From a virus: a stretch of 10,175 nt of DNA. The translations under genes and the position numbers were made by a program. Below are positions 7,720-8,274 of this stretch, in pieces. The notes below the pieces were generated by a model. The model saw only the letters and a program-made list of their open reading frames with translations, had not been told where the DNA came from and made no database searches. The stretch lies in the UHGV virus genome UHGV-0126067, one strand, 5' to 3'. Each line of letters begins with the position of its first letter. Position 1 is the first letter of the stretch.

Positions 7720-7745
7720 ATAAAAAAGCCCCGCTATTGCGAGGC
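7720..7745 (-). terminator. Rho-independent terminator-like hairpin overlapping the Rz1 stop codon
   Basis: Minus strand reads GCCTCGC-AATA-GCGGGGC (7-bp stem with one G.U) followed by TTTTTTAT. Confidence 0.5.
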
Positions 7746-8057
7746 TCGTGATGATTCGATTTTCCTGATTGCCGCCTTATCCAGATTGCACTGCCCTAGC
7801 GCCGTATAGAGCTGAGCGTTCAACTCCAGACTTGCCTGCCACGTGAACGGAACCGCCATTCCGGGGATCGGCGTGTCTGCTGTCAGGTCAGCGCTTATCG
7901 GCACCACTGGGGATGGAACGTAAACTGTCTGCGTATTCCCGCAAGCTGTCAGCAGCGGCAGAAGGAACAAGCTGGTTAGCACACGGATCGCCTTCAAGCG
8001 CCTGCCTGATGTAGACAATGCGCGTCTCGCCTTTTTTGGCCAGTTCGTTCTTTGCAT
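7734..8057 (-). CDS. Rz1: Rz1-like o-spanin lipoprotein, overlapping the 3' half of Rz in another frame and extending past its stop
   Basis: Lipobox LLTAC-G preceded by a hydrophobic stretch (VLTSLFLLPLL). The mature part is proline-rich (VYVPSPVVPISADLTADTPIPGMAVP) and has no Asp at +2. Start is uncertain: ATG 8057 gives a long n-region; an internal TTG at 7997, preceded by AGGCAGG, gives a textbook signal peptide MKAIRVLTSLFLLPLLTAC. Confidence 0.65.
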   Translation of the reverse strand: MQRTNWPKKARRALSTSGRRLKAIRVLTSLFLLPLLTACGNTQTVYVPSPVVPISADLTADTPIPGMAVPFTWQASLELNAQLYTALGQCNLDKAAIRKIESSRASQ

Positions 8058-8274
8058 TCTGGGTAGCCTGTGAGATGTCGCGGATGAGGTTCATCGTGGT
8101 GATCACGTTTCTGGTGATCGCCTCCGATGTGTCTGCCCTGACCGTCGCCTTATCGCGCTGGTCTTTGTAGGTGATGGCGTTGTCGCGGTAGTGGTTTACG
8201 AATAAAACCAGCACGCCGATTAACGCCAGCACCAGCAACTGTAGCCAGTAACGCTTAACCAGCGCGCCAATCAC
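7888..8274 (-). CDS. Rz: Rz-like i-spanin (128 aa) with N-terminal transmembrane segment
   Basis: N-terminal TMD (WLQLLVLALIGVLVLFV) followed by VNHYRDNAITYKDQRDK, which closely matches my recollection of lambda Rz (VNHYRDNAITYKAQRDK). GTG start at 8274 overlaps the endolysin TGA stop (GTGA). Confidence 0.8.
   Translation of the reverse strand: MIGALVKRYWLQLLVLALIGVLVLFVNHYRDNAITYKDQRDKATVRADTSEAITRNVITTMNLIRDISQATQNAKNELAKKGETRIVYIRQALEGDPCANQLVPSAAADSLREYADSLRSIPSGADKR

Follow-up and report, generated by a model that had tools for sequence, protein, structure and literature searches.

A predicted overlapped LysC-type spanin pair, with two main candidate o-spanin starts, in the lysis cassette of a P22-like phage

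Introduction

Overlapped genes are reportedly one of the architecture classes of two-component spanins set out in Summer 2007, and overlapped spanins are said to have been catalogued since that year. In SpaninDB, the transposable phages Mu and D108 represent a 'Mu' family, whose overlapped pair consists of an i-spanin of 128 aa and an o-spanin of 112 aa (Kongari et al. 2018, PMC6139136). The two Mu genes, gp23 and gp23.1, stand in a +1-frame relation, and in phage P2, whose LysB/LysC pair is the prototype of the overlapped class, lysC likewise begins within lysB in the +1 frame and runs on past its end. In phage lambda, Rz and Rz1 follow the endolysin gene and are also related as +1 frames, but Rz1 is fully embedded in Rz.

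Here we analyse a spanin locus in the virus genome UHGV-0126067. The window, that is, the whole stretch of DNA analysed (10,175 nucleotides, to which all positions refer unless stated otherwise), is by its predicted gene content the late region of a P22-like temperate phage, because terminase, P22-type portal and scaffold genes lie downstream of the lysis genes; in this the phage differs from the transposable Mu and D108. We are confident that the region under study comprises the last two genes of a holin-endolysin-spanin cassette and that these encode a predicted overlapped spanin of the LysC (P2/Mu) type, with ATG 8057 as the most likely start of the o-spanin. The architecture, both protein families and near-identical sequences (98%, P0001) are already known, and the analysis brings little biological news, its practical value lying in annotation. 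Two points are only mildly new: a Shine-Dalgarno (SD) and ATG combination, apparently selected across the family, that would give a lipoprotein signal of 39 aa, and a widespread truncation of LysC in public annotation.

Results

The four genes of the lysis cassette (Table 1) are contiguous on the minus strand in the order holin, lysozyme, i-spanin, o-spanin, and the spanin pair adjoins the 3' side of the endolysin gene, as in lambda. The i-spanin GTG overlaps the endolysin stop as GTGA, and an E. coli prophage relative (92.8% identical) has ATG where GTG 8274 stands. In that E. coli locus the RefSeq labels are holin, lysozyme, DUF2570 protein and LysC, DUF2570 being the name that PGAP gives to the i-spanin of relatives. 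The closest relatives of the locus are phages and prophages of Enterobacter, Klebsiella, Citrobacter and E. coli. On the 3' side of the cassette follow a gene with KilA-N and ORF11CD3 domains (7569-7075, minus strand) and a DUF2560 gene (6717-6475, minus strand), and then the genes for a gp3-type small terminase, the large terminase, a P22-type portal and the scaffold. The 5' region of the KilA-N gene, together with the terminator, is about 85% identical to HK97-family phages. Upstream of the holin gene, an ORF of 227 aa (9821-9138, minus strand) is without a Pfam match, and the E. coli relative carries an antiterminator Q fragment and a DUF2441 gene at this place. The holin N-terminus, MAKRMQDK, has two Met codons with Lys and Arg between them and resembles the dual-start motif of the lambda S107/S105 holin/antiholin, for which it is a candidate only.

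Table 1. Predicted genes and sequence features of the lysis cassette in the window
Feature	Position	Strand	Details
Holin, 105 aa	9015-8698	minus	Pfam PF16083 (LydA holin, holin superfamily III), E 2e-21
Endolysin, soluble lysozyme, 146 aa	8711-8271	minus	Pfam PF00959 Phage_lysozyme, E 1.3e-50
i-spanin, 128 aa	GTG 8274 to TGA 7890-7888	minus	phrog_214, Rz-like spanin, E 1.5e-34
Predicted transmembrane segment, i-spanin residues 9-27 (YWLQLLVLALIGVLVLFVN)	8250-8194	minus	best 19-aa Kyte-Doolittle window, mean 2.26
Lambda-Rz-like N-terminal module, i-spanin residues 14-42 (includes NHYRDNAITYK)	8235-8149	minus	69% identity to lambda Rz residues 11-39
Mu-gp23-like C-terminal module, i-spanin residues 89-126 (GDPCA..VP.AAAD.LR)	8010-7897	minus	45% identity to Mu gp23 residues 89-124, E 4e-7
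o-spanin ORF, +1 frame, 107 aa	ATG 8057 to TAG 7736-7734	minus	Pfam PF23793 LysC
AGG, SD-like core	8069-8067	minus	9 nt upstream of ATG 8057
ATG, candidate o-spanin start	8057-8055	minus	38 codons before the lipobox Cys; family-conserved
TTG, third in-frame candidate start	8018-8016	minus	26-aa signal; anti-SD energy -4.6 kcal/mol; conservation limited to the close group
AGGCAGG, SD-like sequence for TTG 7997	8007-8001	minus	contains an AGG that the i-spanin frame reads as a rare Arg codon
TTG, internal candidate start	7997-7995	minus	19-aa signal MKAIRVLTSLFLLPLLTAC
Lipobox L-T-A-C	7952-7941	minus	Cys = residue 39 (codon 7943-7941), followed by G-N
Predicted intrinsic terminator, hairpin and T-run	7747-7720	minus	consensus scan; fold energy -15.5 kcal/mol

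The o-spanin ORF was recognised by two profile collections. Pfam PF23793 (LysC) matched residues 35-102 over profile positions 2-67 of 69 with 52.2 bits against a cut-off of 27 (E 5.9e-14), and the PHROG match was phrog_456, an Rz-like spanin (E 4.6e-24). The ORF starts inside the 3' half of the i-spanin gene and ends 154 nt (7887-7734) past the i-spanin stop, the overlap amounting to 170 nt when counted from ATG 8057 and to 110 nt from TTG 7997. The first-pass annotation had described the pair as overlapped rather than embedded, and this holds for every candidate start, since 8057, 8018 and 7997 all lie within the i-spanin gene (8274-7888) and the stop at 7734 lies beyond it. The lipobox Cys is invariant in 27 aligned homologs, P2 LysC included, and the residue at +2 is Gly, with no Asp at this position. 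Counted from Cys39, the mature o-spanin has 69 aa and is the identical product from either start, so that the uncertainty about the start leaves the mature protein unchanged. An earlier estimate of about 68 aa was thus close, and the description of the mature protein as proline-rich applies to its N-terminal half, where all six prolines (8.7% overall) fall within the first 35 residues. One Cys is conserved in each subunit, C98 in the i-spanin and C52 in the mature o-spanin. In position, in the anchor and helix of its i-spanin and in the lipobox and sorting signal of its o-spanin, the pair has the predicted make-up of a two-component spanin.

The terminator consists of a 9-bp hairpin (7747-7726) followed by six T, and the o-spanin TAG falls within the hairpin loop and 3' arm, which bears out the earlier remark that the hairpin overlaps the Rz1 stop. 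In phages HK75 and mEpX1, the homologous DNA bears a terminator annotation.

In the i-spanin, K7 and R8 directly precede the hydrophobic segment, and a single-sequence AF2 model (mean pLDDT 74) shows one helix over residues 2-94 and another over residues 105-119, with a break at GDPC in between. Judged by the hydrophobic segment and this model, the protein would be held by an N-terminal membrane anchor in N-in orientation and continue into a long helical periplasmic domain, with C98 as its one periplasmic Cys. The match to Pfam PF10828 (DUF2570) stayed below the gathering threshold (16.3 vs 26.6 bits, E 0.0099), and an NCBIfam search with both spanins gave no useful match. The N-terminus had been said to match lambda Rz closely, and this proved correct for residues 14-42, of which 20/29 are identical to lambda Rz residues 11-39 (E 3e-11); pairwise comparison of the remainder of the i-spanin with lambda Rz gave no other match. 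The predicted i-spanin is therefore a mosaic of a lambda-Rz-like anchor and juxtamembrane part and a Mu-gp23-like distal part. A joint of a similar kind was found in phage CobraSix, whose i-spanin gene begins with a 5' (anchor) segment of unrelated sequence and reaches about 95% identity from the DNA encoding NHYRDNAITYK onward (L002 1400-1500). Because the CobraSix joint lies there and the motif is common to lambda Rz, this motif (window 8274-8149 region) looks like a recombination site between spanin modules.

Over the last 17 codons of the i-spanin (7940-7891), diversity is 0.16 at first, 0.03 at second and 0.01 at third codon positions of the i-spanin frame. The tail (..SLRSIPSGADKR) varies mainly at its first positions, and these coincide with the wobble positions of the o-spanin frame. 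Since these codons vary at the synonymous sites of the o-spanin frame, the extreme tail is, by this measure, practically free of constraint as protein and the o-spanin frame prevails in this stretch, in agreement with the description of i-spanins as diverging in the overlap (PMC6139136).

The Pfam and PHROG matches, the similarity to Mu and P2 and the gene layout together identify the pair as a predicted overlapped two-component spanin of the Mu/P2-LysC kind. The o-spanin belongs with the SpaninDB 'Mu' family, the Mu o-spanin frame being 51% identical to it (E 7e-21), and the membership of the i-spanin is partial and mosaic, only the C-terminal 38 aa matching (45%, E 4e-7). Besides the overlapped +1-frame architecture and an i-spanin of the same length as Mu gp23, the locus shares with Mu and D108 the CGN after the lipobox, the motif LGQCN(L/R)DK and a single periplasmic Cys in each protein. 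It differs from them at the N-terminus of the i-spanin, where anchor and juxtamembrane region are lambda-Rz-like and not Mu-like, and in the length of the mature o-spanin, 69 aa here vs 85 in Mu/D108. The SpaninDB supplement (PMC6139136) holds no near-identical entry, only the Mu/D108 relatives. P2 LysC belongs to the same Pfam family and shares the lipobox Cys and the second Cys with the o-spanin described here, with an identity of only 28%, and P2 lysC runs about 145 nt beyond lysB, compared with the 154 nt found here; pairwise comparison of the i-spanin with P2 LysB gave no significant similarity. Membership of the lambda Rz/Rz1 family was rejected: the match is restricted to the 29 N-terminal residues mentioned above, pairwise comparison of the o-spanin with lambda Rz1 gave no significant similarity (E 0.78), and the o-spanin gene is overlapped, not embedded. 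Lambda Rz also has two periplasmic Cys, where the present i-spanin has one. In the RefSeq record of phage Mu (NC_000929; L132 1292-1768, plus strand), the o-spanin gp23.1 is unannotated; its open frame offers several Met codons as possible starts, 27-35 codons ahead of the lipobox Cys.

Two rival readings were weighed. The first-pass annotation had regarded Rz as short and suspected a frameshift; a sequencing or assembly error of this type would imply that the true i-spanin is longer and that the lipoprotein gene is embedded, as in lambda. That suspicion was an impression drawn from the 153 aa of lambda Rz, set against 128 aa here, and from the lambda-like N-terminus. We gathered 127 related loci from genome and viral collections, in about 110 of which the i-spanin start could be assigned, and found i-spanin lengths of 115-149 aa with a mode of 128, the range being that of the diverged loci. 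The i-spanin stop is at the identical position throughout the close group (about 90 independent close relatives), Mu gp23, whose C-terminus is homologous, has 128 aa as well, and the DNA past the stop evolves as single-coding sequence in the o-spanin frame. As length and stop position are the norm in relatives and in Mu, a 128-aa Rz is not suspicious, and we discarded a frameshifted or truncated Rz, the likelihood of which we put close to nil. The other reading takes the cassette for a decaying prophage remnant with non-functional spanin genes, and it can point to relatives that are indeed degenerate, with holin::Rz1 and Rz::Rz1 fusions or without a lipobox. In the window, by contrast, none of the four lysis ORFs is interrupted and their starts and stops are coupled, the lipobox, the terminator and the neighbouring genes for terminase, portal and scaffold are intact, and the patterns of purifying selection are normal, all of which makes decay of this cassette very improbable.

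The start of the o-spanin had been called ambiguous between ATG 8057 and TTG 7997; the ambiguity is genuine, and a further in-frame TTG at 8018 had been missed. Within the window, the anti-SD duplex energy is best for TTG 7997 (-5.9 kcal/mol), with TTG 8018 in between, and weakest for ATG 8057 (-2.5 kcal/mol). The form starting at ATG 8057 would carry a 39-aa signal with an n-region of 25 aa and a net charge of +9, as unusually long as had been remarked. Lipoprotein signals were judged by a PROSITE PS51257-type rule, in which the Cys has to be located at or before position 35: the TTG 7997 and TTG 8018 models pass, and the ATG 8057 model fails only this limit on the Cys position. The rule is imperfect, because it misses P2 LysC. 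Rejection of the long form by a predictor would not be decisive either, because LipoP fails already on the 27-aa signal of the D108 o-spanin, according to the SpaninDB curators (PMC6139136); that signal of a Mu-family member is unusually long too, compared with the 39 aa of the candidate here. Another codon, GTG 7982, was discarded as a start since it would leave a 14-aa signal without a charged n-region. Tat signals carry the twin-arginine motif S/T-R-R-x-F-L-K; a signal of this type in the long n-region (SGRRLKAI) was considered and rejected, its context being unfit by eye and the RR being absent in diverged relatives.

For the comparison of starts, loci were anchored on the lipobox Cys (n=126 in the start counts), and conservation was assessed across 20 lineages of <85% DNA identity, with 42 i-spanin wobble sites from codon -60 to -19 as a control that takes shared ancestry into account. 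An ATG stands 38 codons before the Cys in 116/126 loci, and TTG 7997 is present in 111/126. The T of ATG 8057 (position 8056) is kept in 20/20 lineages vs a background T frequency of 0.39. No other of the 42 wobble sites of the i-spanin frame ahead of the TTG is invariant, and the codon to which this T belongs switches between Asn, His and Asp, yet ends in T every time and has G after it. Second best is the G that creates the AGG upstream of the ATG, conserved in 18/20 lineages and, as the wobble base of an E, Q or K codon, in all 17 lineages that have one of these residues there; every other wobble site reaches 7-17 of 20. Diverged relatives have GAGG or GGAGG at this place, with anti-SD energies of -5.8 to -9.3 kcal/mol vs -2.5 in the window, and are almost without SD for starts at distances of 18, 16 and 15 codons from the Cys. 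Three lineages (L031, L050, L021) have no canonical start codon from 31 to 14 codons before the Cys and could use the long form only, two of them with non-canonical lipoboxes (N or I at -1). The reverse case is L029, in which stops lie upstream and the only usable start, preceded by a strong SD, is an ATG located 16 codons ahead of the Cys; it follows that the long n-region is dispensable. Given that the T of ATG 8057 and the upstream AGG are conserved across the family, the long 39-aa signal probably reflects a real, family-wide start. That ATG 8057 is used in this particular phage we consider reasonably probable, and TTG 7997 may be an additional or alternative start.

Translation of the o-spanin of this same pair exclusively from TTG 7997, with ATG 8057 not serving as a start here, is possible, at somewhat less than an even chance. 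TTG 7997 has the best local SD, which is made by a rare AGG Arg codon of the i-spanin frame, and the first-pass annotation had rightly seen that it gives a textbook lipoprotein signal peptide. Its wobble T is kept in 13/14 informative lineages, and an 87-aa form corresponding to this start exists in public annotation (P0009, a cluster of 39 sequences), where homologous proteins are annotated with many starts, from 57 to 112 aa. The wobble sites of the i-spanin frame show a nucleotide diversity of 0.17 where only the i-spanin is encoded, 0.14 in 8057-7998 and 0.05 in 7997-7941: in the close group, the stretch before the TTG evolves like i-spanin-only sequence, without amino-acid constraint in the o-spanin frame, and this constraint begins at TTG 7997. 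N-regions are, however, weakly constrained anyway, and the retention of the TTG could reflect avoidance of a TAG stop or a bias towards Leu, in a frame translated in any case. The TTG is moreover missing in 7/20 lineages that still have the o-spanin, diverged relatives have almost no SD at it while their ATG is preceded by a strong one, and exclusive use of it leaves the invariant T of ATG 8057 and the AGG before it unexplained. We thus retain ATG 8057 as the preferred start: the textbook quality of the shorter signal stands, but the start signals conserved family-wide are those of the ATG.

Discussion

The comparative test shows start signals under selection in a dual-coding region, and the lipoprotein signal peptide to which they point is, in this family, so long that standard predictors and rules reject it. 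The pair presumably shares the mechanism of lambda Rz/Rz1, and the steps proposed here are modelled on that system as summarised in PMC6139136. The o-spanin would be exported by Sec, lipidated at Cys39 and cleaved by signal peptidase II (Lgt, LspA), and then sorted to the outer membrane by Lol, as the Gly, rather than Asp, at +2 suggests. In complex with the i-spanin, joined to it through the C-terminal regions of both subunits, it would bridge the periplasm, and after removal of the murein by the endolysin the complex would fuse the inner and outer membranes and so complete lysis.

A more speculative idea, which we regard as unlikely, is that LysC/Mu-type o-spanins deliberately keep two starts, a conserved ATG with SD at -38 codons and a TTG/ATG cluster 15-18 codons before the Cys. 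Both precursors would then share the mature lipoprotein and differ in their signals (39 aa with a charge of +9 vs 19 aa), and the long, basic n-region might act as a brake or gate on export and lipidation, tuning the timing or the amount of the spanin in the outer membrane. This arrangement would be the spanin counterpart of the dual-start lambda holin S107/S105, and, if both starts are used, a modest but testable way into the tuning of spanin supply.

For annotation, the comparison exposes a systematic truncation of LysC in RefSeq by which the signal peptide and the lipobox are removed. Under the name 'Rz1-like lysis system protein LysC', RefSeq/PGAP has many entries of only 57-68 aa that begin with MPISADL or MVPISADL, downstream of the lipobox Cys. 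These short entries (P0068, P0074, P0075, P0079, P0087 and P0090, corresponding to 7907-7734 on the minus strand of the window and to L001 2394-2567) are without signal peptide and lipidation site, and they look like the outcome of a systematic choice of start codon that avoids the overlap with the i-spanin gene.

Shortened or joined o-spanin frames of another sort occur in the degenerate relatives, which are presumably decaying prophages. One of them (P0015) has an in-frame holin::o-spanin fusion, two (P0016 and L017) have i-spanin::o-spanin fusions, and among L017, L018, L041, L048 and L049 are loci that keep the C-terminal part of the o-spanin without the lipobox.
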